A stretch of DNA of 46,347 bases, the filler included, from Catajapyx aquilonaris (Eukaryota): NCBI GenBank assembly GCA_000934665.2. It is 2 parts of 2 records of this genome, joined end to end, with 100 filler letters (N's around TTAATTAATTAA, not from the genome) between each part and the next. Parts side by side here need not be neighbours in the genome. Positions count along the whole stretch, not along the records: positions 23,228 to 46,347 come from JYFJ02005742.1; 1 more part is not named here. One strand, 5' to 3'. The notes under the pieces were generated by a model that was not told where the DNA came from, ran no database searches, and was given only the letters and a program-made list of their open reading frames with translations. Numbering within the stretch: position 1 is the stretch's first letter; each line of letters opens with the position of its first letter. Shown here piece by piece: positions 23,128 to 46,347 of this stretch. The position numbers were made by a program, and so were the translations under genes.

Positions 23128-23227
23128 NNNNNNNNNNNNNNNNNNNNNNNNNNNNNNNNNNNNNNNNNNNNTTAATTAATTAANNNNNNNNNNNNNNNNN
23201 NNNNNNNNNNNNNNNNNNNNNNNNNNN
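23128..23227. other. Assembly gap with an artificial six-frame stop linker
   Basis: 100-position N block with TTAATTAATTAA embedded at 23172-23183. Confidence 0.95.
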
Positions 23228-23253: not shown

Positions 23254-25179
23254 ATCTATTTGGAGGGACCCTATGGATCAATGGCACAGACGTGGAGGGA
23301 CTACGAGGTCTCTGTCATCATTGCGGTAGGGGAAGGGGTGCTGACCTTCATATCAGTCCTGGATGATGTGGTGTATCACGGAAACATGGGCATCCCAATG
23401 CCCTGTCAGAAGGTGAGTGGTTGCCACATTTGGATCAAGTTCACCCCGTTCGACTGTAGTTTGTGACATGTTAACAAACTAGTTTAAACGGAATTAGTTA
23501 TAAAGTTTTCATAAAATGAAATATGGAGAAATTGGACTTGCCAGATCATTTGTTTTTTACAATGGCTTCCTCCTTACTGGTTTGTATGAAATTTTTCTTG
23601 AAGGTTTATTTCATATGGTGCACCAGCTCCCAGAAGCATTACGAGTGGATGATTGAATACATGCGAGAACTAGAGAGAATAGACACTGCTCGAATTCTGT
23701 CCACGTTCATCTGCATCACTGAAGCCACAGACAAGTACGACCTGAGGACCATCATGCTATACCTGTGCGAGGAGCACTTCCACAAGGTTCGACACAGGTC
23801 CCTCTTCACTGGTCTCAGCACCCAGATCCACTTTGGGGAGCCAGCCTACAGGACCTTCTTCACCTCCCTCAGGGCCATCTACCCCCACGTGAGCACTACC
23901 ATTATTCTTTGCTCTGGTTGTTGCATCCAGAGTGGTGGATTGCCCAAATTGGCTGCATACCAAGTGCTACCCAAAAGTTCCCGAAATGACACCAATACTT
24001 TTGAACCTCTTATAGTTTGTCGCTACCACTCCAGGTAGAGCTGCAGGTGACCTTTCTGAATATCTCTGCTAAGTGGCAGCATCTGCCGTTGAATTGATCA
24101 CTTTATGTGGGGGGGTTTTGTAGTGTCGTCTTCGGTCCATTCAGCGATTCTATCGGGGGTTAAATTGGTGACCTGAAAGACCAGCATCAAGTTTTGCTTC
24201 ATAAACTTACTTGACAAAGGTTCTCAAATCTACTTCCTTTCAGCTTAATTTTCATTTTCGGGAAAAGAAAAAGTTGCAGGGAGGTAAATTTGGCGAAAGA
24301 GGCGGCTGAGGGAGGACAGTCGAAGGAAACTCATTCAGAAGTGGCGCAACAACAACATCATGACTACGCCAGCTCACAATGCGTTTGCTGTGAAGCAGTT
24401 TTGGGCGTCACAGTCATGATGATTCTCCCTTACCCGCCTTTTCATCGAGATTTAGCTCCCTGCGACTTCTTCCTTTTCCCGAAAATGAAAATTAAGCCGA
24501 AAGGAAGGAGATTTAACTCCGTAAACCAGAACCACGAAGAATCACATCCTGTGCTGAGATCCCTAACAGAAAATGACTCCCAACCTATATACCAGTACTG
24601 TATATGTTACAATGGGAACTACTTCGAAGGTGACGGAGGAAAATTAGGTCTGTGGTATAAGCTAACATTTCAGGAAGAAAATTATTTCGCGAACTTTTGG
24701 GTAGAACCTCGTACATGAGAGGGTCCATCTGCCTGTTCAGAAAGGAAGCAACCATCATGGCAAGTTTCACATGTGGCCATGACTGTTGCTCGTTCTAATT
24801 GGTGTCTTCTCTTTAAATTGGTTGTTGGCATGAACAATCCTTACATTTCGTCTTCATGACCTACCCATGTCACACCACCCTGCCCTTGAGAACCGTTAGT
24901 TGCAAAATGGGGCGTTATTCAAATTGTCCGCCTTACTCTCAATTCCAGCATACCTGTTTTGCAACAAGGACTCCCTCCCAAATTGCATTGACATTGAGCC
25001 ATGTTTTCATGTAATCAGTTGCTAATCAATATTATTATCATTATTTTTTAAATTTGCAGGTGAAGAACTTTGGCGTGTACTGTGCAGGGAGCTCGAAGAG
25101 TAAGAAAGACCTGCATGATGTGATTGCCAGGGTGAACGAGACCAAAGGTGGTTACTTCGAGTTCATCATGGTGAAGTGA
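23254..25179 (+). CDS. Duox: 3' end (last three exons) of an upstream tandem Duox-like paralog, 5' part lost in the gap
   Basis: Exons 23254-23412, 23604-23888 and 25060-25179 have the same lengths (159/285/120 nt) and highly similar sequence to 43774-43932, 44161-44445 and 45109-45228. Frames are open and splice sites intact. Confidence 0.88.
23958..24713 (+). mobile_element. Internally deleted mariner transposon relic
   Basis: TA-flanked TIRs (ccaagtgctacccaaaagttcccgaaat / atttcgcgaacttttgggtagaacctcg). Transposase remnants are PPFHRDLAPCDFFLFPKMK (YSPDLAP.DF-like) and CICYNGNYFEGD. Confidence 0.88.
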
Positions 25180-27191: not shown

Positions 27192-27216
27192 GGAGAGAAT
27201 TGTTCTGAGAGAGAGG

Positions 27217-30200
27217 ATGTCGCCCCCAGAGGTTCTTCTCCTGGTGCTCCTGGGCCTCCTGGCATCGAGGGCTACCCTTGCATACGGTCAGTGTCTGAAC
27301 AAGGCTCACTCACGGAGATGGCGTAACTTTCCCGCATATGCCGCTCGATTTCCCTGCTCCCCAGAAGCATTTATTTCGCCACATTTTTCGTCACTTTCCT
27401 CCATACAGAGTGTGTCAGAGCAGTCAGAGTCACGGGTCAAGAGCACGCAGGGGGGTGGGGAAAAATCGTAGGTGGCGACAACCCCTGTCAGTTTTATCAA
27501 ACAATTAGAAATACGGGAGTCATCAATTATTTTATTATGGCGTGACGTCACCTCCTTTCTGTTCGAATTGACTGGCGCGGACTGGCAGGTGCCGTGGGTT
27601 GAACGGCTTTTTAGCCTTGCGGGTTGCACTGAAAAAGGTGCTCTCATGAGCCAAAACCACGGGTCAATACGTGACGATAATCACCTTTATTTATTAACAT
27701 TTTTATATTTGAAAATGCAGGTTATTGTCGATATTTTTAAAAGGCAAAACAATTATAATCTCTGCTTCCGTGGAACCTAGGATGACTGTTCTTTTTCAAA
27801 TATACGTATATATAGCTATTTTAAAGGCGCTTTCAACTGTACCTTGCACTCTTAATTTATATGGTAAGTTTAAGCTTGAGAAATGCAAAATCTCTGGATG
27901 AGGGTCATAAACACTCTCGTGATAGACTACGACACTACGTGGCAGGTCAGTTAAGGGTAACATGCTGGTTTATAGGCTTCAATCAACATAGCAACAGTGA
28001 AGGCATTCATTTCCCCGAGAAAAGCTTGAAGTGATAAATCGTATATCCCGCATATAACGCTATCTAGCTTATAACGCTACTTTCAGGCTGCCCCTTGAAG
28101 AGCGTTATGTCGAGGTTTTACTGTAAGCACATCGGATATAAGCAAGTAGAAAGGTCGATCCCTTCATATTTCCAGCAGTGCCATTGTACAAGTTCAGTTG
28201 AATCCGGATATAACACACTTGTCTGCTATTCTGACTGCACAAATCTGCCCGCCTTTTTCCGCTCCCAGCGTCAGGCGCCCTCAAAAGGCGTCAAGGGCGC
28301 CCCTTTCGTAATTTTAGCAGGAGGGCAATGTTTCCCCCCCGTTGATACCCCACTGCTGCCACTATACAGTTACTACTACTACTTTTTTTTTGTTAATGTG
28401 GTTGTTTCATGCTTCTCTTCTCTAGCACAAGATGGTGACGAAGTAGTTCCTGAAGGCGATCCCGAAGTCCTTCCAGATCCCGAAGTAGTTCCTGAAGGTG
28501 ATCCCGAAGTAGTTCCTGAAGGCGATCCTGAAGTAGTTCCTGAAGGCGATCCCGAAGTAGTTCCTGAAGGCGATCCCGAAGTAGTTCCTGAAGGCGATCC
28601 CGAAGTAGTTCCTGAAGGCGATCCCGAAGTAGTTCCTGAAGGCGATCCCGAAGTAGTTCCTGAAGGTGATCCCGAAGTAGTTCCTGAAGGCGATCCCGAA
28701 GTAGTTCCTGAAGGCGATCCCGAAGTAGTTCCTGAAGGCGATCCCGAAGGCGGTGATTATGGCAGTCCCGGAGGCGGTGATTATGGCAGTCCCGGAGGCG
28801 GTGATTATGGCAGTCCCGGAGGCAGTCCCGAATCTCCTGGCGCAACTTGGTGAGATGAGGGCAGAACAAACAGTGCTGCCTTTCTGGTCATTTTCACCCT
28901 AACATTATATGGGATTAATGTAATGCCAGCATGCTTGCACAGTAACGTGTGCGAAGCTGGCTCACCACCTACCTCGGATCGAAGTGAAATTAATGGACTA
29001 TGCAGTACTCTCAATGGACTCTTTTGGATCTTTTTACTCTGCTCATTGGACCCCTCTAGTTTCAGAGATATTCAGGTTCAAAGTTTTCACGCCAAAACAT
29101 TTCAATTGCGACTCTGCTCACACCATTCGACATGGCCGTCTGAAATTAATGGACTATGTATTATGTCCCAAGGACTGCCAGACCCAGGACTCCGTGTCGC
29201 CAGATTAGGTGAGAGTATTCACCTGAAGAAACAGCTTTGCTCATATCCCATTGATATATTTGATCTGCTGTACTCACAAGGGAACTGGAAGAGTGCTGTA
29301 AATGGAGTTGGTGTATGAAACTTGGCACAATAATATAGGCAGGTAAGTTATTAAACAAAATGCAAGCTGTTTCTGCGAATGCACAAGGTCAAAAGTTATG
29401 ACCTCTTGGACTCACAAGGGGCACTTTCCAAGTGCCACTCGCGGATTTTCTTGAAATTCGGTGTATTGGTAACCCACCCAAATGGATGAAAAACTCACCT
29501 ATAAAGTTGCCTGCTCAAAATGACCCTGTGACCCCCTTTTTTTTTAGGGGAGCAGAGCCCCCTAGATGTTAAATTTTTTTTAGACCGACGAAAGGTTCTG
29601 TGAAAACTGTCAGACAGTGTCGTCTTACTTTTATGTTGATTGTGTACTTCCCACGTGCGACAATCTCGTAAAGATATGTGATGTCTCTGACCAGTTTGCG
29701 TCCCCCTCAGGCCCGTGATACAGTACGCCTGGTTTAAAAGAACGTAAATGGAGGACAGGCCTGCAGAATTTCAGACACCTGTTCCGTTTCGCTTCAAATT
29801 AGATAAAGATGACTGGTGTGCATTATGTCGTGCAGTAGCCTATTCCTAAAATGCAGTTGGTGTAAGGATCTCCTGTGATTCTCCCACTTTTTCATTGAAT
29901 CTACCCCCTCTGGAATGAGTTTGTTGAGTATAACCTGATTTATTAAGAGTTCAGGCTTTTGAGAGTTCTTCCGTACTATGTATCTGAAAATATGACCTTT
30001 TCCCTAAATGGTATTTCTCAATTTCTTTAATTTGCACGGTCATTTTACATACATTCCTCTGCGTTTTAGCTTGCGACTTGTTTTCATTATGTAAGTTATT
30101 ACTCTGTGACTACAAGATCTGTAATGTTTTTAGTTTAGTTTCATTTTGTCTTGAAAATTATTTCCATTGCAGTTTTTAGGTTTTACAAGTCAGTTTCGTC

Positions 30201-33200
30201 CAGTAAGAAAGCATTTCGTTTCTGTCCAACGTTGCTCTATTGACATAAATATGTCTTGAGAAAATGTCGTTTTTTATAAGCACAAATATATTTTGTCCTT
30301 AAGTTGTGCTTTAGTAGGTTATACCCCTATTTCTGTTCTCTTTTTGAGACATGTACGTATGTAGCACTGTCATCAGGAAAGCTCGTGCGCCTGGCTAGAG
30401 TGCTGCCACCGTGTGATCAGCCACCAGTGCGTTGCTAACCGAGATATCTTGGCATACCTCGAACTTGTGCATCGGGTAACTTGCAGTTACATAGTGTAAA
30501 CTACAATAATTACAGAGGCTCGTAACATGTTTCTGTTAATTTCAGATGGCTAGGTCGGATGGGGCAATTACAATCGCAGTTGAAATGCTTTTTTGGGCAA
30601 CCTTTGAAGCCAAATATCTCTGAAACTAGTAGGGTCCAATGAGCGGGGTCAAAAGGTACAAATAGTCCATTGAGAGTAGTGCATAACCCATTAATTTCAT
30701 TCCGAACCGCCGTGGGTGGCGAGCCAACTTCACACTTTCGGCCACTTCCTTGAAACCGAATATTTCTGAAACTATGCGAGTCCAATGAACGAAACGTATA
30801 GACCTGGTAGTCCTCGGGACGTAGTACATAGTCCATTAATTTCAGACGCCCACGTCGAATGGTGTGCGCACAATCGCAATTGAAATGTTTGGGCATGAAA
30901 ACTTTGATCCTGAATATCTCTGAAACTAGAGGGGTCCAATGAGCGGGGTAAAAAGATCCAAAAGAGTCCATTGAAAGTACTACATTGTCCGTTGAGTTCA
31001 CTTCGATCCGAGGCAGGTGGTGAGCCAACTTCACACCCATACGTTGGATGGGTTAAGCATGGCAGGAAGATAATATTGTACAGTGAAAAACACATCAATG
31101 AAATTTATTATCAATACAATAATTCATAATGGTTCTTAGGTGCGTAACTTTTGTCCTGCCAAATGTCAATTTGAAAGCATATTATGTGGCCTTCAGAAAA
31201 ACTTAATCGGTTTGATGAAATATTGCACATGCTGCATCGATGCATGGATGAGCTTGCATTCCTGCACTTAACAATGTTTGTAATGTTTTCAAGTGAGAAT
31301 AATTCCTCATTACCTGAAGCCACTTACAAGAAAGCAGCAAGGCAATGGCCACCGAATGTATGTGGAACATGGAAAGAAACGTCAGGAGGTAAGTATAATG
31401 AGTGTGTCAACCATTGTATTGATGCAGTAGCCACCCTTTCTGAGTTTGTGCCCATGTGATTTGAAAGTACAGTCCCACTTGCAGATTTTGGGTATCGTCA
31501 TAATAACATTAGCTTTCAACTGGATTACCCAAGGGAACAAGATATGAACTCAGGAAGGGAACTGAAATGGTGGTGTTGACCCCCCTTCCTCTGTTCTTTC
31601 CAGTGAACAAACCACGACGAGATGTGTGGGGCAAAACAGGGAAAAAGGAAGGATTTCTTCGATGGCTGATTGATGGCTGCGACTTTTACGATGATTCTTG
31701 CAAACCAGCGCCATTCAAGATGATTGAGTACGCCCGATTTGACGGATTTGGCAACAGCAGAGCCTTTCCAGAGAGAGGATTAGCAAGTGAGCGCTCCTTT
31801 TTTTAAAAAAAAAAAAAGGCTGAAAATAAGGCAGTAAGCTTATTAGGATTAGAAAAAGGGCAGCGCATACTGTGACACTGACCGTGTTCTTTTCTGAAAA
31901 ATAATCTGCTTCTCATTAGAGAGAAGGCAATAGTGTGTGTGATAGTGACTGCCGTAAGACAGTGTCATGCAAAGTGATATTCCTACGTTCGAAATGCGCC
32001 TACCTTCTTTTTTTGCAACTGTTGTTTAGCCAGCCAGTGATGACTCCGGCCATGCATCCAACAGCCATCCCATCCTGTTCTATTCTGTTTTGTTATGTGG
32101 CATGTTTGGAATGGATCGCCAGTCCCGCCAGTCCTGGAGCTCCCTATAATACATTATGTTACGAATTTCATGTCACTACTACAGTATTATTTTATGGTCC
32201 CATCACACAGGGCACTTGGATGGGCAGTACATATTCCCTGTGTGTTGTGAGATAGCTAAACTCTGATGATGATAATGATAATGATAATGATATTGATGAT
32301 GATGATGATGATAATAGTGAAAAATTTTGACCTCAGGATCAGCCATGAATCAAGTGATTACCTACAGTTATGGAGACAAAGTGTCAGCAGCAGACACTAC
32401 ATCAGGCCGCCCAGATCCACTGGAAATCAGCGCGAAGTTGTTTGGTTCTGAACATAGTGCAACCAAGTCAACAGAAAGCGGAAGATCAGTCCTCCTGCAT
32501 TACTTTGGTGAGAATTTATCGCCAATTTACATCACTTGTGGTGATTTAGAGAATATTGTTGTGGTCCGTTTCTCGAGTTGATTAGCTGGGTAGGAAAAGC
32601 ACGTGAAAGACATTGTTTGTCCATTTTGGGATATTGGGAAGAACTCAACTCAGCAGAAACATTATTCAAGTGCTTAGTACCGGTTGTTTTGAGCAAAGAA
32701 AATGCGTGAGCATGTGTCCATCCGTCTTCTCACTTCTGGACAAACTTAACCACATTGACTTACTTCCTGTATTCCCACAGTCGTACTCATTTTCTGTTTA
32801 TTACATTATGACTGCATCAACTTACACAGGGAAATATGTTGTCGAGGAGATTCTGAACAGTCGTCAGGCAGCATGCCCTATGGAGCACCTGGACATTGGC
32901 CCTGGTGATGAGCCAAAGATGCCATTCAAGAGGACCATATATGACCCTACAACTGGAACCAGCATGACCAACCAGCGTCGGCAGCTTAACCTGGTGACGC
33001 CCTGGATTGATGGCAGTGCTGTTTATGGGACTTCTCGCATGTGGGCCAATGTGCTGAGGACACAGCACGATGGCTATTTGGACCCAGATGGGAAGCTGGC
33101 CACTGATCCATCTGGAGAGTACCCGGAGTACAACTGGATGCGAATGCCCTTTCGCAACGACCCATCCGTCGTCAACCACTCATTCTTCAAGCAGGAGAAG

Positions 33201-35979
33201 CAACGCTTTTCAGCATCCCGTCTTCGTGGATTTGGACATGTCAATGGCAACGAGAACCCAGTGATTTTTGCCATCTCGACACTGTGGTTTCGCTGGCACA
33301 ACGAGGTGGCACAGTACCTCAGAAAAACCCATCCGCACTGGCCCAATGAGATATTGTTTCATGAAGCACGCCGCTGGGTCATTGCCACGATGCAAAGCAT
33401 CTTCCTGTACGAGTGGTACCCAGCAACCTTCCTGCAGCCCCTCCCGGCTTACCATGCTTACGATTTTCTGGATGACCCACAGATAGAGGCCATGGTGGCA
33501 GCTGCCACCCTTAGATACGGACATGTGACCATTCCCCCAGGTCAGTTGCTTATACACCTTTTCTCTGCTCCTCCTTCCAGCTCTGCCTCTCTGATAGTAT
33601 ATTATCCGCTACACATGCCCTTAATGATTAGGTCACGTTGGAAACCGAAACGTATGTTGTCGTCTCCCTTGTTCATTTTTGTTGAACTGGATACACTGGC
33701 TTTAAAAAAGTAATATTTGGTTGAGTGTATTTTTCCTCGTCTAAGTAGTACGATGTTTGTTTGCTACAATATTATTGGAAAGAGTTATTTCCCCTTAGTT
33801 GGAGGAAGGGTAATACGAGGTAATCCTCTCTGGCGATTTTAACGCTCGTGTTGGAATGGAACGACAAAGCTCATTTTTAAAATCCTAATGAGGTTTCCAC
33901 AGTACCGCTGTTAACCGAAGCAGTAGGGGTGGAGTGGATAGGGTGTCCGACTGCTAATCGGGAGGTCCTGGGTTCGAATCCCGGGCCGGCAACCCTGACC
34001 GTTGTTTTCCACGGTCTTTCTAGGATAATTCCGGGGTCGATTCCGTATATATTTTTTTTTTCATTACCCCACGGGGGGAGTTATACTATGGCCCCTAGTC
34101 TGATGACCCGGGGTAAGCTATCCCGGGGGCAATCACCATGGCAGCATACGTAAAAGGATAGCAGTAAACAACCAGTTACCCCAGGGGGCAAGCTACCCTG
34201 GGTCACCAGACTATATACCTATACTCCTTAGGGGGGGGGGGGGGGGGGGTNGGGAGGGGATGTGCAAAGTGCAAGTGCAATGTCTCTAATCGTCATTTTG
34301 TGAACTCCCCCGGGTGGCTTAGTCTGCCGGAAATTGCCACCCGAAACGAAGCCAGAGATGGCCCAACTCTGCACGAAAGAAGGTGGGAACCCCGGGTGGG
34401 GATTGAACCCGGGACCTTAACTTCCGTGGGCGCGCGCGTTACCGCGGCGCCACTCCGTCTCCCCGTCGATTCCGTATAATAGGCCACAGCCGCTTCCTTC
34501 CTTCCCTATCCTTGGAGGTTGAAAGGCAATGCTGGGCCAACCTCCTTAAATATCAATTATAAAGTACTGCAGTTAGTACATACGGTTAGGTAGTACGGCT
34601 GTTAGAAAACAGACTGCGGTCTTGGGCGGAGGACAATAAGATATTACCGTAAAACCTGGCGGGTTTTAGAAGGACCAGATGCTGTATGGACCACATATTC
34701 GTTCTCACAGAGTTGATACAGAACTATACTGCGAAGAAAAGGGGAAAACTCTACGCACTGTTTGTGGATCTTGTGAAAGCGTTCAACTCGGTAGAGCGCA
34801 GCAAGCTTTTTTCAAAGCCATTGACTCGGGGAGTCAGTCAAAGTAGGTTGCACATGCAAGTTTTGTCCCGTTATAAGTACTATACTGATCTTTCGCCTGA
34901 TATTGGACTCTCCCAATATTTCCTTTACTCTCTCCCCCTCCCATATTATGTCCGTTTGGTGAGCAATCTCAGAAATGCATCATATTCTCTTTATGTTGAA
35001 AACTACAAATTCCTACAAATTCAGCTCCCCCACTCGCACTTCCTGTACACTCTGTAATAGTAACGATAATTGGTCTCTTTATCGCTTAATTTACGATTGC
35101 CACTTCTTTCGGGCAATTACAAGGGATAAACTGGTAGGAATTCCAAAACTTCCTCAGGGTATTCTTTCCGCTGGTTGTGCTTATTATTTATTGATAATGG
35201 TTGCCTTCCATCACATCCTCTCTTCCCACCAGCCAATTATATTTATCAGTAGTTGTACTTTTTTTTAAATGCACATGATTGGCTGACAGGAAGCGATTTC
35301 GGGGCTGAAGGTTTCCATACCTTCCCGGATACTTTGTACTTGTCGTTTGAACGCAATTATCTCCGTAACCTATTAGTAACTAGTCGAGTAACTAAGTAGA
35401 CTATCTATTAGGCAATGCAGTATATCTCGAAAACTGTGCTTGGCAGCACAATTCCAAGTCCAGATATGGAATCAGCACAGAAAGTACTATAGGAATCACT
35501 ATTCACATCTTCAGAAAGAACACAAATATTTAAAAAATCAACGGTATATCTGCAAAACACGTCTATTATTTTCTCGCGAGCCATGTATGACCCAGGATTG
35601 AAACTGAACATACTGAACCTTGTGCCGGTCACAACATACTAGTGTCACCAAATGCAGCTGATGTACCGCAAATTCATCACTAATTATTGTCGGGGTCCTA
35701 ATTCTTGGGCATGTGTCTAGAGCCAGTGACCAATGAAATGTGAAAATAATTTTAGTTACATTTTAGAGAAAAACGAATCTTCTATAGACTGATTCTGCAG
35801 GTGTTTCACGCATCAGCACTCCCTATTATCCGGGTGCAGATTATCCGTGTTGCGCATCGCCATAAAATAACATCTTAAAGTAAATGTCCAAAAGTATGTC
35901 AATATGTTTCGCCAACCTTGGTGGTATCCCCCCCCCCCCCCCTAAGAGGGCCCATGGCTCGAGCACGGGGTACAAATTA

Positions 35980-36011
<32 letters not shown>

Positions 36012-39000
36012 GTTTCACTAACCAAGTAATATGAGACTTTCCCCAGAAGACCAATTTAAAATCTATCCCATGGTAAGTTTCATTATTTTTGATTAACTTA
36101 AACCTTATTTAAAGCATACAGCATACAGCATGTACTGTAGTTCTTTTGAACCTCTGAACAGCTCATTTTACTGCATCTAGGACCATTTGCGGATCATCAA
36201 TGTTTTACGATTATCATGGTATCATACGCCGATGCACATTCAATAGCACAGTTGATAATAATAAGGAGTGTACAGTGCACGTACCTTCTCCGTTATGAGT
36301 ATACATCGAGATTTCCTTCTCAGGTTAATCGGCATGTGCAAGGGACAAAATATGAAATGATATTTACGTAGCAACTTCTATTGTCACCTAACTGACTGTA
36401 TAAAACTTTCCAGAAAGTCACAGGGTCATATTTAAAGAACATCTGCAAAAAAGGGGGGGGACGACGACACGAAATGTGTGGCTGAATAATTATGATGTAT
36501 ACATAAATATTACGTACCTGTAACTTTTATTGCAGTCATCAACATGATGCACCCAAGCCATGAATTCTGCAAGTTACAACCGTTCAGAGTATCTGGTAAA
36601 GTGAGTGTCGGAGGTGCCCGCTTGTGCCAGAGCTACTGGTTGGGACAGGATGTTTTCCTGCAGGAGTTGGACTCTCCTACTGGACAACATGACTCGGTCA
36701 TGCCGGAGTACATCTTCTTGGGAGCAGCCACCCAAACGCCCATGCCTTATGGCATGAAAATGAATGACGATATGAGAAGTAGCTCTCTTCTTGTCCATGA
36801 CTTTTTTCTGGATATTCTGACAGGAGTGGTGCATGTCTTTACCTTGTTCCTATACCTCCAAATTTTAGAGTACATGTACGGTCCGATGTCATTCAGCCGT
36901 CGGGACCTGGCCGCAATTGACATCCAGAGGGGCCGGGACTGGGGTCTGCCTTCATATGAAGAGGCTCTCAGATTATATGGGCTCATGAGTTATTTGGAAC
37001 GGAAGAAGCTGGACCCAAACAAGATGGTCGATATTAATAAATGGGTGAAAGACTCTGCAGTCTCTCCACAGGTAAGTGAGAATCACACTCCTTGTTGTTG
37101 TTGAGCATCAATTATGAGTACTTGCCCCCATATTCTTTGTTGCCTTGCAGCTTTTAAAGGAAGCAGATGACCTTTACAAAGGCAAACCTGTTGACCTGTT
37201 GGTGGGTGGTCTCCTGGAGGGCAGGAAAGGGTATCCTGGACCACTGTTTGAAGAAATGGCGAGGAAGCAGCTCCTGTCCATACGTGATGGAGACTACTTC
37301 TGGTTTGAAAATGCTGTCAACAAGTGAGAAACTAATAAGTGCTAATAATTATTTGTGTCGGTTATGCGTTCAAGAGATTCAGTTGTTAAGGGCAATAATT
37401 ATAGTTCAAGTTTCAAACTGCGAGCTTCAATGCCACTCATTCATTCGAAATAAATTTCGCTCTTTTCAAGCTGGTGATAATTCCAAATGAAATAATTATT
37501 GAAGGCTGAAATGTTTGCTCAATGAAATATTAATTTACTTTACAGACGGTTCAGCGCAAAGCAGATTGCCCGCCTCCGTGAAGTATTTCTTGGTGATCTC
37601 ATTCTCTTTTTGTTTGAAGTTGAGGCGGAAGATATTCAAGAGCGTGTTTTCTACCTTCCTACTAAAACAGGTACGTTCCGGAAGTGGAGATGATTTCCAC
37701 TGGGCATCCATGTTTTAAGCTGATGTGTTTTCCTTACACCATTACTCCGCATCCAGAAATGCTACCAGAAGGACACCCGTGTGAGACAAATTTCCCAAAT
37801 ACGGAGAGATGTTATGTCCCTGATCCCAATTGTGAAGGGGGTCCGATGAAGAAGGAAGGTGACATTAATTGGAATTGTTATCACGAAAAGGACACTTCGA
37901 GTGACCCTGACAAAATGGAAGAATGCACACCTCTGCAGACGATGTCATACTTTGACGGCAACATTGTTAGTGTCGTCTTCACTTGTGTGGTCTATTTCTT
38001 GGTCCTGGTGGCCCTGTGGGGACTGCTCAAGTTCCAGATCGCATCGTCCGAGCAGGAGTGGGAGGTGAGGGTTCCAGAACTGCTGGGACTGGTCAGCCTG
38101 TCCAGTGTCTACGGGACGAACATGCCTACCTTCGCAGCCATGGAATTTCAGGGAATGAGAGGGGGCTCCAGGTCTGTCGTTCTCCTCTTCAACACGAAGG
38201 ACAAGACCATCGAGTTGTGGGGACCTCTGGGAGGGGAGATCCGGACACTCAAACTTTCCCTCTTCACCAAAGTCAACATTGTAATGGGGGATGATGGCCA
38301 GCACCTCATCATCAAGGTATGCCCAGTACTAAGCAATTATTTACGTGCGAAAACAGGAGCCAAATTTCAACAAATTTATTGACTTGTTCATTGCTGTTGC
38401 ACTGTGTGCACAGTGCAGATTGTCTTGGAATAGGAACCTAAGACAGAGTGTCCCCCTTATTGTCCCCCACACCCTTTCAGGTGCCACACGAGTATGACAT
38501 GGTGTTGGAGTTTGTGACGTCCTCCCACCGAGATGTTCTGATGTCAGCCTTGGCTCACTTTCTGGATGAGAATAACATAGGCTATCTCTGCCGGAATGTG
38601 AAGCTTAGCGATGCTATGGCGAACGCCATCACCTTTGAGGACCGACAGGATATCCTGAAGCGTTACTTCAATGTCATAATTCTTCAGGCGCAAAGGGTGT
38701 ACAAAACTACAGCAACATTGCTCAGCCCGAAGGAAATGCGCAAGCGATACATGGAAGTGGCCAACGTGCAGCTTAACGAGCTCGAATTTGCGGAGGCCCT
38801 TGGGATGAGCTCCAAGTCTATCTTCGTTCAAAAGGTACTCGTGACGTGATGGGTTTCAGAATATATTTAGCTAACATATTTTCGTGACATTGGAAACGTG
38901 ATACAAGTTGTTGATTCCATGACTGCTTCATGACTGTACAAGGGAGACCAATTTTTTAAATTTAATAATCCTGCCTGTCTAATGCATGGTAGTATCCTTG

Positions 39001-40563
39001 GGCACAGGATTTCCACCTGTTATGCAGGAGAATCCGTGCAATTTCCTCCAGTGCAAACATGTGCTGAAACCCTGTGAGTGGTTAACGCAATGTGGTATTC
39101 TCATATCCACTATGAATGCATTCACACTAGTTTTACTGGCCGCTTGGTGTTAAATTATATTTTTGAGAGCTCTGGCAGACATATGTCCGTTTCACTCTTG
39201 CAATCGTAGAGTGGTACCTGATACAGTTGTACTCTTGGACCTGTGTTTCCTAGCTTATTGCAATGACAAGGTCGCATGAGAGAAGTTTTAATGAATGCTT
39301 TCTCGCAGTTGTTTCATCTGGTGGACAGCGACAAAGACGGATATGCAAGCATACGTGAATTCCTGAACTTCTTCCTTGTCTTCAGCAGAGGTATGATGAT
39401 TGTGCTGTTTCACATTCACCACTGAATCGTAGCACATGATCTTACTCGTTTGGGCTGGTTCAATTGGGGATTTCCCCAAATGCACAGGAGCACCGCAGTC
39501 GTGAGTCATTCGAGATGTCTGAAATTAATGCAAAACAATCGGAAGTTTTATAGATTGATTTTGGAATTGATCATGTGGTATATGTATGTGTACATTTTCA
39601 CAGTGCTACTTAACCTTTGTCCTACACTACAGAGTGAATGAGGCCTTTTCTGCATCTGTCCCAGTTGATTAAGCAACAACAATAATTTTGAGTGTCAGTC
39701 CTGCGTTGCCCTTGCACATACAAATGTGCTGTTAAATTCCAGCTACATTCACAGCTAGCCCTTCTTTTCTACTAGGTACTGCCAAAAGGAAGGTGAACAT
39801 GTTGTTTGAGATGTATGAGACCCGTGACACCCGTGGGAAACTGGGCTTTGCAGAGTTCAAGCAGATCCTAATGTGAGTGCTCAAAGGTGCTGAAGATGCG
39901 AGTGGAAAAGCGCTCTTATTTTGATTTTGTTTTTTGTGGCCTTGCAGAAACTTGGCTGACATATCAAATGCCAATGTCAATCGCCAGAACTTGTCTGAAG
40001 CAGTAGATGAGTTGATGAAGAACGCTGGGATATTTGAACAGACAGAGTTCAGGCCAATCGATCTGGAGAACGTTCTGCAGAGCAACAAGGACCTTCTTGG
40101 ATACGCCCACCTGGACCTGTATGGGCCAAACATCCCAGAAACAGGAGGATCCGTGGCCATGGCCATCGAGAGCAAGAGGCTGAGCTACTTCGATGCAGCC
40201 ATGCTGGGAGCCCTTGACCTCCACAAGTTGTTGCTTCTTCTTCACTTTTTTCTTTTTTTCTTAATCACTGTCAGAAACGTTATGGTGCCTTACGTGTGTT
40301 CTTTCGTGAATGTAGTTTGGAACAGGAGCAGAAATCTGAAGTAAGTAAGAGAACTAGCAGGGGAGACAACGTGGTCCTCCTGACCCTGGAAAAAGTGAGG
40401 AAGAGCAAGTTGGGCTCCTTGCTGACTGTCATACAACTTCACTGGGAGAAGATCTTGTGTTTTTTTATTGTCCTCGTAGCCTCTGTATGCGCACTGCTGT
40501 ATGGCTTAAGTAAGTCTTTCATTATTTAATATTATGCATAAAATTTGTGTGCTACTTATTCTG

Positions 40564-40595
<32 letters not shown>

Positions 40596-43500
40596 GGCTT
40601 GAGGTCTTGAAACTGCTGCATTGCAACATTAAGTGATAATGTAACACACCTGGAAGTGGATTCACTGAGATAGGTTGCTTTAACTCAAGGGTGCTCAGGT
40701 GTCTACCTGCGCCATGACATTATTTTTGTATTTCCTTAATCATCACTATTTTGCTTCTTTTCAGTGGTTGCTTCAGCACCATTCCATACGCTCCAAGCTT
40801 ATGTGTTTGGTCCGTCCTGGACGGTATCTGTACTGTCAGGAAATGCCGTGTTGTACCTCCTTTTCTTCCTTCCGCTCACCAACTGCCGGAACCTGCACAC
40901 ACACATGCGAGAGACATTTCTCTCCAATGTCATACCCTTCGACTCCATGCTTTTCATTCATAAAGTCATTGCCTGGATGGCATGCCTCTTCATGAGTAAG
41001 TACTCAGTATATCAGCAGTATTTGCAGGGAATGTGCATGCCACCTGATGTAATTATGTTGCTCTTTTTTATTTGCAGTCGTGCATGTGATATGCAATATT
41101 GTTACTTTTGCAACCCTGTCAGGAACTGAGCCTGAGGAAATAGACTGCATGACTTGGGTGCACCTAGAGTGAGTTTGTTTTGGTATTATTAGTACATTCA
41201 CTACACTTCTTGTGTTCCTTTCTATTTGGCACATAATTATCACATCCATTTTCACATGCAATATTTTACAACATGCATTTTGCCATCAACCAATCTCGTC
41301 ACCCAATTGCGAGGCTGCAATGAAGGCTCATACATGTACAGAATGTGCCTGTGGATGATGCCGCACTGTAGCGTACGCCACAGATTGCACTGGAAATTAC
41401 AATCACAAAGTACACCATGGCATTTAATGTGCCAGATGCAGTAGTGGGAAGCATTCATTGCCGGCAAGCCACACTTAATAAGAAACTGCTTTCAACACTC
41501 ATAGTCTTAGGAGTTACCAAAGTGCTTTATGTTACGTTGAATTGAAAGCAGGTGTAAGGGCCATTATACTGTTGTGTGGTGAACACGTCTTCTATTGCAG
41601 TGAGTTACACGATCATTTCTGAGCCACTGCGGGATAGCCAGGACCAATAACAATTGGCACTTTTAAAAATGCGAATGAACACTGATCAGAGTGTATCTCA
41701 GGGAGAAGTCTTACTGGATGTTCAGTAACATCACAGTATCGTTAAGTGTTAGAAGGCTTTTGGTATGTTTTTGCTTTGCACAGCAACACTGCTCATGAGC
41801 AGTAACATGAATAAGGCATTGAAGTATAACTTATTAGTATCATTGTTCACACTTTTAAGGAATGTCCATTTATTAAGTCAAACTTGCCAGAACCATGTGC
41901 AATGCTGAGATGTGCCAATTATGGATGGAACATATAGATCAATCAGAATGCATAATATTTCTGAATAATAATTCTGATTTTTATGCCATGTTTTGCTTTG
42001 TTTTCAGGACGCATTTGTGGGTGGATTTTGATTACTTCATGTGGCGCACCACAACTGGTTTGACAGGCAATGCCATGGTCATGATAATACTGGTCATGTA
42101 CTTCTTCTCACTCCGAATCTGTCGGCGGAAAGCCTTCCGCTGGTTCTGGGGCACACACAAAGCTTACCACATCATGTACCCTTTGATGATCTTGCACATC
42201 GTGGGAGACTCTCTGAAGGTAAAGTGCTGCCTAACGGTGTGTATAGTTCATGGAAGGCAAAAATAAATATGAAATTCATCGATTGCAACATAATTATCAT
42301 ACCAATTATTTAAGTAGAGAAAATAATACAACTGACATAATTTTACTCATGTCCTTTCCATGTTTTGTATTATTGTATTTATATCACTTGTACTTACTCT
42401 GCCCTTCTTAGGTCCCTGACCACTCCTGGCTCCTGATGACTCCTCTGATCATCTTCTACTTGGATCACTTTGGCACCCTCAGTCGCCAGAAGAGGCCCAT
42501 TGAAGTCATTGACTTTGAGCTACTACCTTCCAGTAATATGCCTTCTTGCATGATTGATAATATTATTATTATTATTAAGGTTGGACGGTGTGATCATTGG
42601 CAAATCCAGACCAAGTGATTGATCCTTGCTATTCCTTGTTGGTGGCAATGCACCACACAGGACTGCCCCATTCCACAACCATAGTTTCTGTGGAGCTTGG
42701 TATGGAAGATGGTTAATAAAGCCTCGTGCTTTATAGGGGGAAGGTCAAAAAGCACTTTTGGCCAATTAAACACGCATGGACACACGCACCATGTTATTAT
42801 CGAGGGTCGGCAAATTGTTGGGTTTACTAACGATCCTGCGTCCCAGCCAAAAATAAATGAGAATGGACACTCAGGTGTAGCCACGTACTGTTATTTGGAT
42901 GGATTAGCTGATCCACCAAAATGAAAGGTGACAGGCTGACTTAGAAATTAAGAATGAATAATAATGATAATTCAAGAGGGAATAGCGGGTCATTCACCCC
43001 AGCAACGGGTGTAAATGAGACGACCCATTGGAAGGAATAATATTAAGGCCAGGGTCATTTGCATGGAGTGACTATCATTTGCCCAATGTAACATTGCAAT
43101 GCTATGTTCATTCCACTTTTGGGAGGAATTCTTGAGCCAATTTTGATGCCAAATGGTCCTTTCATACTAGGTGCTGCTATTTCCCAAACAATTTTTTTTT
43201 TTCATGATTTAACTCGTTACATGGAATTTAATAACATGGCAGCACTTTCTCCTTTATCCAGCTCCAGGCCACTCCTCATTGAAATGGCACCTTTGCAATA
43301 CTCCATTAGTGACGAAGTAATACATGTGCGTGTTATCAGTTAACATTTGATGAAAACAATAAGGGGGAAATACTCTGATGTCCATGGCGATTGAATAGTC
43401 ACAAGAGATGAGCACATATTGTGATTAAAACCGGATCCTAATGCACAACTGACTCTATACCTCCAGACATGATCAAGCTTGTTGTTCGTCGCCCTCTGAA

Positions 43501-45012
43501 CTTTGAGTTCAAGTCTGGCCAGTGGGTGAGGATGGCCAGCAGCGGACTGAATGCAGAGGAGTTCCACCCCTTGACCATCGCCTCTTCTCCACGTCAGAGC
43601 GTCATGAACTTCTACATCCAGGTGCTTGGGCCCTGGACCTACAACATGAGGCACCTGTACCAAACCAGGAAGACCAGGAGGAAGAAGTACCCCAAGGTGA
43701 ACTATACACAGTCAGCTGCTTCTTGTGACTGCAACCTTCCTCTAATCTTCCTTCCTTCCTTCCTTCCGCACAGATCTATTTGGAGGGACCCTATGGATCA
43801 ATGGCACAGACGTGGAGGGACTACGAGGTCTCTGTCATCATTGCCGTAGGGGAAGGGGTTCTGACCTTCATATCAGTCCTGGATGATGTGGTTTTTCAGG
43901 GCAACAAGGCCATCCCAATGCCCTGCCAGAAGGTGAGTCGTATCCACTTATTGTAGTGAACTGTCAAATTTTTTGTTCTGACAAATCGATGAAAAGATTG
44001 TCACAGGACATATAATCGTTGCACTAGTAAGTCCAAGTCAACGACAGGAAAAATGAGATAATTTCATTAGCGTATGTTGAAAAAATTGGACTTGTAAGAT
44101 CATTACTGGTTTGTTTAAACGAAACTGAACAATAAGTAATTCTTATAAATTTTCTTGAAGGTTTATTTCATATGGTGCACCAGCTCCCAGAAGCATTACG
44201 AGTGGATGATTGAATTCCTTCAAGAACTAGAGAAGATAGACACTACTCGCATACTGTCCACGCACATCTGCATCACTGAAGCCACAGACAAGTACGACCT
44301 GAGGACCATCATGCTGTACCTGTGCGAGGAGCACTTCCACAAGATTCGAAACAGGTCCCTCTTCACTGGTCTCACCACGCAGACGCACTTTGGGGAGCCA
44401 GCCTACAGGACCTTCTTCACCTCCCTCAGGGCCATCTACTCCCACGTGAGCACACAGCTTGTTCTTTGCTCTGGTTGCTACATCCAGAGTGGTGCACTGC
44501 CCATGTCCGCAGTGTAAAGACCCATACACACAGGCCGTCGACGGTTTTGGTCTTTGGTTGCGTTGACGCCGCGGACCAATCATGACCCATGTAAACAATG
44601 TGTTGCGCATGTTTACATGAGTCATGATTGGTCTGCGGCATCAACGCGACCAAAGACCAACACTGTCGACGGCCTGTGTGTATGGGCCTTTAAGTAAGAG
44701 GGATGAGGGATGAGGATTGTTCAGTCCAGCCACCAGTCTAAAAAGGAAGCAACCATCGCATATGGGGCCATGACTGCTGTAGCTTATTGTTCCAATTGGG
44801 GTAGATGATATGAACAATCCTTCAACGTTGCCTTCATTTCCTATACCCATGTGTACTTGGACAGCACCCTGCACTTGCAAAATTGGTGAACCATGAAATT
44901 GTCCACCTTACTCTCAAGTACAGCATAACAGTTTTGCAAGTACTGTACAAGGCTCCCTCCCCAATAGCGTGGACATTGTGCTATGGTGGCATGTCATCAG
45001 TTATGCATTATT

Positions 45013-45082
<70 letters not shown>

Positions 45083-45228
45083 CCATCATAATTTCTGAAT
45101 TCGTGCAGGTGAAGAACTTTGGCGTGTACTGCGCAGGCAACCTGAAGAGCAAGAAAGAGCTGCACGATGTGATTGCCAGGGTGAACGAGACCAAAGGTGG
45201 TTACTTCGATCTCATCATGGTGAAGTGA
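27217..45228 (+). CDS. Duox: Divergent dual oxidase (Duox)-like protein, 24 exons, about 1803 aa: signal peptide, repeat domain, peroxidase-homology domain, TM, EF-hands, 6-TM heme domain, FAD/NAD(P)H domain
   Basis: Exons 27217-27286, 28426-28849, 31294-31388, 31604-31786, 32337-32507, 32830-33540, 36536-36778, 36869-37071, 37151-37323, 37546-37670, 37757-38316, 38481-38834, 39309-39390, 39776-39872, 39948-40226, 40316-40509, 40765-40995, 41078-41168, 42008-42218, 42412-42532, 43467-43696, 43774-43932, 44161-44445 and 45109-45228. They total 5412 nt, are all GT-AG and have compatible phases. Motifs: EYARFDGFGN, NLVTPWIDGSAVYG, QRGRDWGLP, IRDGDYFWFEN, DSDKDGYASIRE, KSGQW, HPLTIASSP, GPWT, EGPYG. 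Exons 1-3 and two weak donors (36779, 40227) are less certain. Confidence 0.88.
28440..28817 (+). repeat. Coding 24-bp tandem repeats: (EVVPEGDP)x12 then (G/E-GGDYGSP)x3
   Basis: gaagtagttcctgaaggcgatccc units, where the variants in the 28482-28745 array are at third codon positions, followed by ggaggcggtgattatggcagtccc units. Confidence 0.95.
28947..31040. repeat. Inverted copies of a roughly 235-bp repeat bracketing Duox-like intron 2
   Basis: 28947-29181 is the diverged reverse complement of about 30803-31040. A further diverged unit lies at about 30535-30790. The sub-motif tgaaattaatggactatg is shared. Confidence 0.8.
33914..34510 (+). mobile_element. tRNA-derived SINE (third family) interrupted by another SINE
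   Basis: B box ggttcgaatcc at about 33971, then cctgaccgttgttttccacgg. The element resumes after the insertion with ggccacagccgcttccttccc. Confidence 0.7.
34050..34464 (-). mobile_element. tRNA-derived SINE (head type B) with poly(A) tail, nested in another SINE
   Basis: Head and body align with 21695-21863. The 14-bp TSD gtcgattccgtata lies at 34036-34049 and 34465-34478. There is an internal imperfect hairpin at 34096-34213. Confidence 0.85.
34662..35140 (+). mobile_element. Non-LTR retrotransposon (LINE) relic
   Basis: GFRRTRCCMDHIFVL...LYALFVDLVKAFNSV is a reverse-transcriptase motif. It is followed by a degenerate C-terminal zinc knuckle CTLC...C. Confidence 0.8.
40565..40592 (+). repeat. 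(TG)n microsatellite
   Basis: Read directly from the sequence. Confidence 0.9.
44517..44690. mobile_element. Palindromic MITE (about 175 bp) in the last Duox-like intron
   Basis: aagacccatacacacaggccgtcgac... / ...gtcgacggcctgtgtgtatgggcctt. It is flanked by TA and is palindromic over almost its whole length. Confidence 0.85.
45013..45088 (+). repeat. (CAT)n microsatellite just upstream of the last exon acceptor
   Basis: Read directly from the sequence. The paralogous intron has only a short attattatcattatt at this position. Confidence 0.9.
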
Positions 45229-45855
45229 GAATTCTTCTTGCGACGAGTGGCTAGGATTGCAGAGTCAACCCCACACGCCTTTCCTACTAGCCACATGTTG
45301 TGTTTGGTTCCTTATTATTATGTTTTTGTAGCCAGGTGCATACAGCAGAGCAAGTCGGTCAGAAATGACGGATTGGATGTGCTGTTCGTCTCCAGGTTAC
45401 TTTTGTTTGTTCTGCGTAATAAAGGGTGGTTAAACTCCCAATCCATATTATTATTATTAATTACTCCACAAGGCCCAGAGGCCTTCTTCGGGGGACACAC
45501 ACTACATCTTTACAATGGTATCTAGTATTCACATTTCAACATCACAAAAAGTCAAATTCTTGATTATCAGGTCAAAGAAACGAGCCAACATAATATGATT
45601 GTATCTTCTTTAGATAGTGACCGAAAGAGCATGTGTAGCAGGTGAGGTGGGGTTCGAGGTATTTTGACAAGATATTTTTTCCTCACATTTCGAGAGAATA
45701 ATCTACATTCATATTATATCAGATGGAACATTATTAAGTCAGGGGTTCGGCGCTCCAGCACAGTGTATATGGGTGATTCTCCAAAAACTTACCATTTTCA
45801 AAGCAAGAATTAATGAATTTCAAAACTTGTTTTAAAAATCTGAAAAAATTCTCAC

Positions 45856-45857
<2 letters not shown>

Positions 45858-45901
<44 letters not shown>
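45858..45901 (+). repeat. (AAT)n microsatellite
   Basis: Read directly from the sequence. Similar tracts occur at 35976-36009 and in the SINE tails. Confidence 0.9.
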
Positions 45902-45902
<1 letters not shown>

Positions 45903-46347
45903 TTTATTTCCCTATACAAAGTAGTATTTGGAAAGACCATCCCCCTCCAAAACTTACATAACAATATCACATAGTTGTAATTTTTCCACTGCATTAAAAA
46001 AAAAATTATATAAAGAAAAAACCTTTATAGTAGGCATATCTATGAACAAGGTGTATACATCATCTGGTGGAACCCTCGGAAAATCTCTTACACACTCACG
46101 AGCTTCTTGGTAAAAAAAATACACTCAAACAGGATATGGAAAAGAGAACAACCAACCATATCATTACATAAGGAACATATTTCTTCATTGTCAATTTTCA
46201 TACAGTAACCTTGGATGTAAAGAACTCTGGAATTATTCCTTAAATTTATCATTAGTAGTAGCCCACTGCATATTACGGAGCCTCATGGAAAAATTCCGCA
46301 GTGTCGCCACCGTCTATGCGAGTTTAACATGGGAAAGCGCCACTGCG

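Follow-up and report, generated by a model that had tools for sequence, protein, structure and literature searches.

A DUOX-like gene, here called copy B, occupies positions 31723..45228 on the plus strand of the window, the whole 46,347-nucleotide stretch of Catajapyx aquilonaris DNA that was analysed, and three exons of a second copy, copy A, lie upstream of it on the same strand. Copy B was delineated by spliced profile alignment, tblastn chains to 8 DUOX homologues and Pfam matches; its model comprises 22 exons and 1527 codons, with every intron GT-AG and with no internal stop (the spliced aligner avoids stops by construction, which applies to this open frame). The model spans profile column 74 to the stop codon, so that at least one exon, carrying the start codon and signal peptide, lies 5' of it; it is doubtful at the small exon 36424-36477 and over the 3' portion of exon 39948-40278. 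A polyadenylation signal, AATAAA, follows on the plus strand at 45418..45423, ~190 nt past the stop codon. Pfam identifies An_peroxidase on two exons (E 1.8e-43 and 1.5e-9), FAD_binding_8 (E 1.7e-9) and NAD_binding_6 (E 1.7e-5), and the protein is predicted to retain the DUOX architecture, comprising a peroxidase-like ectodomain, an EF-hand region, a six-helix dihaem domain, and FAD and NADPH subdomains. Human and mouse DUOX1 (PDB 7d3e/7d3f, 6wxr) share their domain order and fold signatures with copy B, but the NADPH loop and arginines, the Cys and Pro of the CG(S/P) motif, R1087 and H1148 are replaced in copy B, and its second EF-hand is degenerate.

In the extracellular and linking parts of the protein, the peroxidase Arg is lost. 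The first EF-hand loop, DSDKDGYASIRE, matches the canonical pattern (EF-hand_1 21.6 bits against a cut-off of 25.4, for a 30-residue piece); the second carries a one-residue insertion and is missing the acidic pattern. Among the long open reading frames of the window, no DUOXA-like gene was found.

The dihaem domain is encoded in part by exons 15 to 17, all on the plus strand. Exon 15 (40777..40995) covers helices M2-M3, with the inner-haem His in FIHK and, by PDB alignment to DUOX1, a Val at the position of R1087. Exon 16 (41078..41168), bordered by a strong acceptor and a GTGAGT donor, codes for the last part of M3; it holds the outer-haem His in IVH and, in the spliced model, an Asn at the position of H1148. 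Exon 17 (42008..42218; aligned to 7d3e residues 1184-1238) covers helices M4-M5 and keeps the equivalents of H1225, H1238 and R1214. All four positions equivalent to the haem-ligating histidines H1130, H1144, H1225 and H1238 are His; R1113 and the FAD-phosphate Arg R1214 are kept, and the Lys at the R1131 position is the arthropod consensus. The D1128 position, a contact to the FAD ribose, is Phe, in a column that is also variable among the canonical rows. The Pfam Ferric_reduct match, on one exon, reaches 25.9 bits, under the cut-off of 28. The FAD-binding subdomain follows in exon 19 (43467..43696, plus strand; DUOX1 residues 1291-1363), which carries HPLTIASSP and GPWT and is recognized by FAD_binding_8 (38.2 bits, cut-off 22). 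The FAD motifs had been described as kept; this holds for GPWT and GPYG, but the HPFT motif reads HPLT (72 of 78 homologues have the F), leaving 10 of the 11 conserved FAD-motif positions intact. The middle of the electron path is thus kept, from the FAD motifs and the residues at the FAD phosphate to the histidines of both haems.

The two ends of this path look different. At the entry end, exon 20 (43774..43932, plus strand; aligned to DUOX1 residues 1364-1416) reads IYLEGPYG...AVGEGVLTF against the canonical GGGIGVTPF, and gives no Pfam match at E 0.01 or better. Exon 21 (44161..44445, plus strand; DUOX1 residues 1417-1510, E 1.9e-29) holds the core of the NADPH subdomain, with WCTSSQ for WVTRTQ and HFGEP for HFGRP, and matches NAD_binding_6 with 25.4 bits (cut-off 22.2). 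The terminal exon 22 (45109..45228, plus strand), found by the spliced aligner, reads VKNFGVYCAGN...FDLIMVK-stop, with GVYCAGN for GVFSCGP; its likeness to the canonical C-terminus profile is equalled by 6 of 500 shuffles, and it is conserved in copy A. A PDB sequence search with exon 22 and the exon preceding M1 returned no DUOX match. The motif strings read in the earlier note are all present, in frame and in exons with GT-AG borders, and the spliced aligner independently picked the same four exons. Alignment to human DUOX1 (7d3e) resolves the changes as G1387A, G1388V, I1390E, T1393L, P1394T, R1424S and R1495E; the acidic residue that the note had seen in the pyrophosphate loop is the Glu at the I1390 position, and the lost equivalent of NOX2 P415 is P1394T. 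The readings FGEP for FGRP and CAGN for CGP, and the missing C-terminal aromatic, were likewise borne out in exons 21 and 22. The note had all NADPH-binding motifs altered, but their core glycines (G1389, G1391 and the Gly of the Cys motif) are kept.

These substitutions are rare or absent in the family. Homologue counts refer to a de-duplicated alignment of 79 proteins, from which 16 isoform duplicates were left out. At six of the altered NADPH positions the residue of copy B occurs in none of the 76-79 homologues compared: V for G1388, E for I1390 and L for T1393 (0 of 78 each), T for P1394 (0 of 77), E for R1495 (0 of 79) and A for the motif Cys (0 of 76). The A for G1387 is seen in 7 of 78, the S for R1424 in 1 of 79 and the N for the motif Pro in 1 of 76; among all 216 proteins collected, none has Glu at either the I1390 or the R1495 position. 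The chain ends in IMVK, two residues short of DUOX1 and lacking the terminal aromatic, a position at which 64 of 79 homologues have F or Y. Nine of the 13 NADPH-motif positions are unlike every accepted residue, and the changes are concentrated there: of the columns conserved at 90% or more, 5 of 8 are changed at NADPH-motif positions against 4 of 34 elsewhere (Fisher one-sided p = 0.006). The nicotinamide cavity is formed by the terminal Phe with the XGXGX and CG(S/P) motifs (PMC11564096), and the 2'-phosphate of NADPH is bound in DUOX1 by R1495, R1424 and R1036 (PMC7794343). Of this pocket, which would be expected of FNR-type NAD(P)H-dependent flavoenzymes, NADH users included, copy B retains the loop glycines, but the loop Pro and motif Cys are replaced and the terminal aromatic is absent; R1424 and R1495, both of them 2'-phosphate arginines in human DUOX1, read S and E. 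The canonical set of NADPH contacts (GxGxGVTP loop, 2'-phosphate Arg pair, CG(S/P), terminal aromatic) is thus not preserved. At the pre-M1 positions R1036, E1039 and N1040 the model has T, Q and L; they were set aside as a diagnostic, the motif being missing in insect and crayfish DUOX too. The fold of the subdomain is nevertheless recognizable, with NAD_binding_6 above its cut-off and 72% of near-invariant columns retained, much as in the peroxidase and FAD parts, the scaffold being preserved and the ligand contacts replaced; as the loop glycines are kept, the protein may still bind some nucleotide. The entry end would be lost with the XGXGX flanks, the Cys and Pro of CG(S/P), the terminal aromatic and both 2'-phosphate arginines.

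At the exit end, neither residue of the oxygen-reducing centre, an Arg on M2 and a His on M3, is found in copy B. At R1087 copy B has V, where all 36 canonical rows have R, and at H1148 it has N, where 34 of the 36 have H. In one structural study R1087 is termed invariant, and the corresponding mutants of csNOX5 are reported to be affected in their reoxidation by oxygen (PMC7794343). This loss of the oxygen-reducing centre, at the exit end, goes beyond what the earlier note had described. The note had proposed that NADPH hydride transfer is lost; the sequence basis stands, the equivalents of P415 and C537 and the 2'-phosphate arginines being gone, and the loss of transfer itself would follow from it as a prediction, one that is strengthened because the oxygen-reducing centre is lost as well (R1087V, H1148N). 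Since residues at both the entry and the exit are replaced, we infer that the copy B protein neither oxidizes NADPH nor reduces oxygen.

Disease mutants of canonical enzymes bear on this prediction. NOX2 with P415H/L or C537R still binds FAD but its diaphorase activity is abolished, and DUOX2 R1492C, in the GRP motif, produces 5-fold less H2O2; in each case the mutant protein is still expressed (PMC4550764). The positions of these NOX2 X+ chronic granulomatous disease mutants and of DUOX2 R1492C are those of P1394T, the Cys to Ala exchange and the GRP Arg to Glu exchange in copy B; however, the disease mutants are single changes in canonical enzymes, whereas copy B is changed at many sites in a gene that is seemingly maintained. 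Of the three NOX2 substitutions invoked previously, P415 and C537 are pertinent, but E568K, according to a review, acts through lost FAD incorporation and complex assembly and is not purely a matter of the NADPH site.

The same residues could be taken to indicate re-tooling and not loss, with copy B a transmembrane flavocytochrome that accepts electrons from another donor (NADH or a protein partner) and passes them to an acceptor other than oxygen. The cofactor chain is consistent with this, as the four haem histidines, R1214, the Lys at the R1131 position and 10 of 11 FAD-motif positions are all retained; the Glu at the R1495 position and the kept loop glycines fit as well. A likeness exists to SpNOX of Streptococcus pneumoniae, which is described as being without the ionic contacts of the DUOX1-type R1424/R1495 to the 2'-phosphate, the feature that sets it apart, and as using both NADH and NADPH (PMC11564096). 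The likeness ends there, however, as SpNOX, which is highly active, retains XGXGX, CG(S/P) and the terminal Phe, all of which are altered in copy B (PMC11564096); SpNOX also has no peroxidase or EF-hand parts. The earlier note's alternative of a changed nucleotide thus draws weak support from the arginines, and the motifs speak against it. Against re-tooling speak further the replaced P415 and C537 equivalents, mutations of which abolish diaphorase activity (PMC4550764), the Phe at the D1128 position, and the haem domain, which keeps only 45% of its near-invariant columns (70% are kept in the peroxidase and 69% in the FAD part). We regard re-tooling as rather improbable, and are yet more doubtful of its specific form, a redox-active FAD-dihaem membrane wire with NADH or a protein as donor and with an acceptor outside the cell that is not free oxygen, such as a metal, a quinone-like cuticle precursor or the protein's own peroxidase-like ectodomain.

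A further possibility is that the unusual motifs are an artefact of the gene model, canonical alternative exons having been missed or lying outside the window, which ends 1.1 kb beyond the stop codon of copy B, and that the real NADPH site is normal. But the changes fall in three different exons, and in two more of the haem domain, and recur in copy A; each altered exon is the sole homologous one found, whether 8 tblastn queries or the spliced aligner were used. An alternative last exon ending in ENF was looked for; the only open reading frame ending in NF-stop (44814-45098, HHH...NF-stop) derives from a (CAT)n/(ATC)n microsatellite at 45013-45089 that is absent from copy A, and was rejected. 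Read-through of the exon 21 donor has the look of a decayed canonical tail in tblastn, but 491 of 500 shuffles of the copy A sequence and 438 of 500 of that of copy B score as high, and the copies differ there at 5 amino acids, each by a non-synonymous change; read-through gives no homologous tail and was likewise rejected. When 23889-31300 and 44446-46347 were scanned with the profile for a further terminal exon, copy A exon 22 scored 23.8, within the noise of 22-27, so that the scan did not discriminate and excludes a hidden terminal exon only weakly. Taken with the other evidence, an artefact of the model seems highly improbable.

Copy A provides a second view of the same exons. Its counterpart of exon 20 (23254..23412, plus strand) has the AVGEGVLTF loop as in copy B and is 94.3% identical to it, with no indel; that of exon 21 (23604..23888, plus strand; NAD_binding_6 E 6.1e-5) has WCTSSQ and HFGEP as in copy B, with 93.3% identity; and that of exon 22 (25060..25179, plus strand) reads GVYCAGS and ends in FEFIMVK-stop, with 91.7% identity. 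The first of these lies 26 nt downstream of a gap (23128..23227) formed by two runs of N around the linker TTAATTAATTAA, by which the remainder of copy A is hidden or truncated; tblastn with 8 queries found no further DUOX exons in 1-23127. Between the copies, exons are 92-94% identical without indels, and introns ~77-78% over the aligned part, with many indels. The 3' flanks also align (45353-45436 with 25328-25408), copy A having ATTAAA at the position homologous to the AATAAA of copy B. Over 187 codons, dN/dS is 0.38, which, coming from 38 differences, indicates moderate constraint only and would fit one constrained and one neutral copy as well; 15.5 of the 38 differences are synonymous, above the neutral share (binomial p = 0.003 to 0.009). 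Directly observed, then, are the substitutions, the unbroken frame and a conservation between copies A and B that is specific to the exons.

This comparison bears on whether copy B is simply a recently inactivated or decaying duplicate without function, its open frame being a remnant. Such a gene might show what is seen in the tree, in which copy B has the longest terminal branch (1.97 against a median of 0.47, in a quick LG+G4 tree that is less reliable for long branches), and in the protein searches, which yielded no orthologue, as well as the joint losses in several domains (NADPH site, oxygen centre, second EF-hand, peroxidase Arg) and the visibility of only the last three exons of copy A, beside a gap. 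It would hardly be expected to maintain 1527 codons over 22 GT-AG exons with neither stop nor frameshift, 69-79% of the near-invariant columns outside the haem domain, a conserved polyadenylation signal, and a second copy whose exons are free of indels and far more conserved than the introns, with the dN/dS ratio and synonymous excess given above. An open frame despite the longest branch, a second copy with the same changes and this dN/dS argue that copy B is probably not a decayed gene, and we hold decay to be unlikely.

In the protein searches, the best identity was 60% for a single exon and 34% over the full length; the former came from a word-index search with exon 21, exon 20 yielded no scored match among 8 candidates, and the peroxidase exon reached 44%; an exhaustive search of representatives reached 54%. 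In the tree, the weak sister of the copy B protein (SH-aLRT 80) is dual oxidase 2 of the crayfish Procambarus clarkii (P0045, XP_045615867.2), an arthropod DUOX of the same architecture with 31.5% identity and a branch of 0.77 against 1.97; in contrast to copy B, it retains AGGIGVTPF, the CGS motif and the ENF end. Degenerate DUOX-like proteins, annotated as dual oxidases, occur in weevils (P0063, P0184/P0073, P0186/P0078) and in the horseshoe crab Tachypleus (P0052/P0192), with changes at 5 to 8 of the 13 NADPH-motif positions and, as in copy B, the Arg of the oxygen centre replaced. These proteins fall into other clades than copy B, inside the beetles and beside scorpion DUOX respectively, and therefore arose independently of it. 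The weevil proteins no longer have the FAD motifs, and a FAD-phosphate Arg or a haem His is gone as well from two of these three; copy B keeps all of these.

The reading that we favor, with some confidence, is that copy B is a full-length, very divergent paralogue of arthropod dual oxidase that is under selection and non-catalytic. Such a pseudo-enzyme would most likely act through its ectodomain or by associating with DUOX or DUOXA. The low share of near-invariant columns kept in the haem domain (45%) weighs against this reading, as it may point to relaxed constraint in general and not to a cofactor wire under maintenance.

NOX and DUOX proteins are regarded as enzymes dedicated to making reactive oxygen species, and, to our knowledge, every full-length homologue is named "dual oxidase" by genome annotation; a full-text literature search found no paper on a maintained pseudo-enzyme of this family without NADPH entry and oxygen exit. 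Copy B, if maintained, would be such a pseudo-enzyme, a cofactor scaffold with neither NADPH entry nor oxygen exit. DUOX copy number would then be unsafe as a proxy for the capacity to produce reactive oxygen species in studies of crustacean immunity and moulting, and copy B would represent a natural separation-of-function allele for the DUOX ectodomain and for DUOX-DUOXA assembly without electron transfer. Seen alongside the proteins of weevils and the horseshoe crab, it would suggest repeated inactivation of DUOX copies in arthropods. Were copy B instead a membrane wire, the DUOX scaffold would have gained a new enzymatic use, of which the degenerate DUOX copies in weevils and horseshoe crabs could be additional, separately evolved trials.

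The window DNA is of animal type, with introns, microsatellites and transposon remnants, and a chain of dual oxidase (DUOX) matches runs along its plus strand from about 31.7 to 45.2 kb (tblastn, eight DUOX homologues as queries). A purpose-written spliced aligner, fitting a protein profile of 16 full-length DUOX proteins to the genome, resolves this gene (copy B, 31723-45228) into 22 exons, all with GT-AG borders, and 1527 codons with no stops; the model lacks one or more 5' exons, with the start codon and signal peptide, and is doubtful at two places, one the small exon 36424-36477 and the other the 3' part of exon 39948-40278, which is rich in pyrimidines. It is a strong indication that the frame of copy B is open and intact, not proof, since the aligner shuns stops by design. 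The last four exons, which the aligner chose independently, are 43467-43696 and, with clean GT-AG borders on the plus strand, 43774-43932, 44161-44445 and 45109-45228; together these four code for the FAD and NADPH subdomains of a dual oxidase (Pfam FAD_binding_8, 38.2 bits; NAD_binding_6, 25.4 bits, cut-off 22.2). Among solved structures the best relatives are DUOX1 of mouse (E 6.8e-30) and of human (E 1.9e-29), both values from PDB sequence alignments of exon 44161-44445. A 2.9-kb intron of copy B contains a reverse-transcriptase fragment (34653-35054; Pfam RVT_1, E 1.2e-5), and no DUOXA-like gene was seen among the long ORFs of the window.

An earlier note had described the NADPH motifs at 43774-45228 as altered; all the strings it quoted are present, and PDB alignments map them onto human DUOX1, whose residue numbers are used here. 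The loop GGGIGVTPF reads AVGEGVLTF (G1387A, G1388V, I1390E, T1393L, P1394T), WVTRTQ reads WCTSSQ (R1424S) and HFGRP reads HFGEP (R1495E); the last exon carries GVYCAGN in place of GVFSCGP, with Ala for the motif Cys, Asn for the Pro and a Cys one place earlier, and the protein ends in FDLIMVK-stop, the final two residues of canonical proteins being absent in the alignment. The core glycines, G1389 and G1391 in the loop and the one in CG(S/P), are retained. Among 79 homologues (all proteins of at least 500 residues from three homologue searches, after 16 isoform or cluster duplicates, P0184-P0199, were dropped), the window residue never occurs at G1388, I1390 and T1393 (0/78 each), P1394 (0/77), R1495 (0/79) or the motif Cys (0/76); it occurs once at R1424 (1/79) and at the motif Pro (1/76), and seven times at G1387 (7/78). 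R1424 is the least conserved of the altered NADPH sites (R in 59/79), and a terminal F or Y is found in 64/79. In columns with 90% conservation or more, the altered positions are 5 of 8 in the motifs and 4 of 34 elsewhere (Fisher p = 0.006); with the threshold at 80% they are 6/10 and 17/77 (p = 0.019).

R1495, R1424 and R1036 are described as binding the NADPH 2'-phosphate and telling NADPH from NADH (PMC7794343). In the account of PMC4550764, NOX2 P415H/L and C537R keep FAD but have no diaphorase activity, FAD incorporation is lost in G408E/R and E568K, and DUOX2 R1492C, in the GRP motif, yields 5-fold less H2O2. That the FAD motifs are kept, as was also claimed, holds for GPWT and GPYG, which are identical to the canonical ones, and for 10 of 11 conserved positions; it does not fully hold for HPFT, which reads HPLT (F in 72/78 homologues), so that these motifs are nearly intact. 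In an alignment of 36 canonical full-length rows with the window model and four degenerate proteins, the model retains R1113, R1214 and all four haem histidines (the ligands H1130, H1225, H1144 and H1238 of PMC7794343), and has K, the arthropod consensus, at R1131; the same source has R1214 and R1131 bind the FAD phosphate. The middle of the electron wire being retained, the enzyme might have been re-tooled for another donor and acceptor, and the arginine loss mimics SpNOX, which is described in PMC11564096 as lacking the arginine contacts and accepting both NADH and NADPH; a switch to NADH, however, leaves the loss of the P415 and C537 equivalents and of the terminal aromatic residue unexplained, and we hold this reading to be distinctly unlikely.

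R1087 and H1148, described as invariant and as surrounding the putative oxygen-reducing centre (PMC7794343), are Val and Asn in the model, and R and H in 36/36 and 34/36 canonical rows, respectively. The first sits in the same exon as the PDB-aligned block, five residues upstream of it with no gap; the second follows the outer-haem His by four residues, and its exon has a strong acceptor and a GTGAGT donor. Both assignments are thus robust to errors in exon boundaries. This alignment predicts that the electron path is lost at its oxygen end too. The second EF-hand is degenerate in the model alignment. In the peroxidase-like exon 32830-33540, the NPRGNENP conserved in the peroxidase domain of arthropod DUOX reads HVNGNENP, with Asn for an Arg that we take to be the catalytic one of animal peroxidases; if it is, the ectodomain would also be non-catalytic.

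Counterparts of the last three exons, with the same altered motifs, recur on the plus strand at 23254-23412, 23604-23888 and 25060-25179 (copy A), so that the motif changes are older than the duplication. The join at 23128-23227, two 44-nt N runs around the linker TTAATTAATTAA, lies 26 nt upstream of the first visible exon of copy A (the linker string recurs, without Ns, at 4169-4180); since tblastn with DUOX homologue queries found no further DUOX exon upstream of the join, either the assembly truncates copy A or copy A is a 3' fragment. The interval 28068-31104 between the copies contains inverted repeats of about 230 nt (30804-31036 versus 29181-28949, 90% identical) and a low-complexity tandem-repeat ORF. 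The exons of the two copies are 94.3, 93.3 and 91.7% identical, with no indels, and the introns (191 versus 228 nt and 1171 versus 663 nt in A and B) 78 and 77% over their alignable part, with many indels, a contrast that is truly larger than measured because, at the global-alignment settings used, even unrelated sequence shows an inflated identity. Over 187 codons dN is 0.053 and dS 0.141 (ratio 0.38, Nei-Gojobori), and 15.5 of 38 differences are synonymous, more than the 21.5% expected under neutrality (binomial p = 0.003 to 0.009). These comparisons argue for some purifying selection on the exons since the duplication; that the gene is a young pseudogene we consider unlikely. Poly(A) signals are homologously placed after the stops (AATAAA at 45418-45423 in copy B, ATTAAA at 25390-25395 in copy A).

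The earlier note had named an alternative last exon ending in ENF as evidence that would count against it. The one ORF found to end in NF-stop, a poly-His frame, is an (ATC)n microsatellite (45013-45089, some 26 units) just before the last acceptor, which copy A does not have; its N-F-stop in one frame resembles the canonical DUOX end by chance. Read-through past the exon 21 donor gives a tail that looks canonical in tblastn, with scores below those of shuffled controls, and was rejected. The window stops 1.1 kb past the stop codon, so that a distant alternative exon could lie beyond it; such an exon would need to replace three exons at once, and a gene-model artefact, with canonical exons elsewhere, is very improbable. 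The read-through frame stops exactly where a MITE-like palindrome begins in the last intron of copy B (44515-44692; 83-nt arms, 92% complementary, 12 nt apart), which has no counterpart in copy A; the last intron of copy A carries a transposase-like ORF remnant (24215-24715; no Pfam match, likeness by eye). The first ~58 nt of the last intron of each copy (44446-44503 in B and 23889-23946 in A) are far better conserved between the copies than the rest; they are not coding-like, since 5/5 in-frame amino-acid differences are non-synonymous, and may be a splicing element.

Of the near-invariant columns defined on 18 canonical proteins, the window protein keeps 70% in the peroxidase-like domain, 76% in the linker, 79% in the EF-hand region, 69% in the FAD subdomain, 72% in the NADPH subdomain and 45% in the haem (TM) domain, the most changed. 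By these shares the NADPH subdomain as a fold is no more eroded than the rest, its losses falling on ligand contacts. The most economical reading, which we hold to be fairly probable from the sequence, is a pseudo-enzyme: a paralogue of DUOX through which electrons no longer pass from NADPH to oxygen and which is kept for something else. Its retained ligands of haem and FAD may be there for folding and maturation, or for a residual redox role. Full-text literature searches found no description of a catalytically dead DUOX, nor do passages of the evolutionary surveys PMC5372347 and PMC11721785, whose supplementary files might list such copies, describe one; the oxygen-centre loss and the second copy are what is new beyond the altered NADPH motifs.

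A quick LG+G4 tree built on 45 proteins puts the window protein on its longest end branch (1.97; median 0.47), with Procambarus clarkii dual oxidase 2 (P0045, XP_045615867.2) as a weak sister (SH-aLRT 80; 31.5% identical). Among the 79 homologues, NADPH-motif positions are altered in three weevil proteins (7-8/13) and one horseshoe-crab protein (5/13). Like the window protein, the weevil proteins P0063, P0184 and P0186 and the Tachypleus protein P0052/P0192, all publicly annotated as dual oxidases, have lost the oxygen-centre Arg; unlike it, the weevil proteins no longer have the FAD motifs. Of the proteins seen, the window protein alone keeps FAD and haem sites yet loses both the NADPH and the oxygen ends. 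As the weevil and horseshoe-crab proteins sit in two clades other than that of the window protein, their losses are independent events, which suggests that DUOX copies have been inactivated repeatedly in arthropods.
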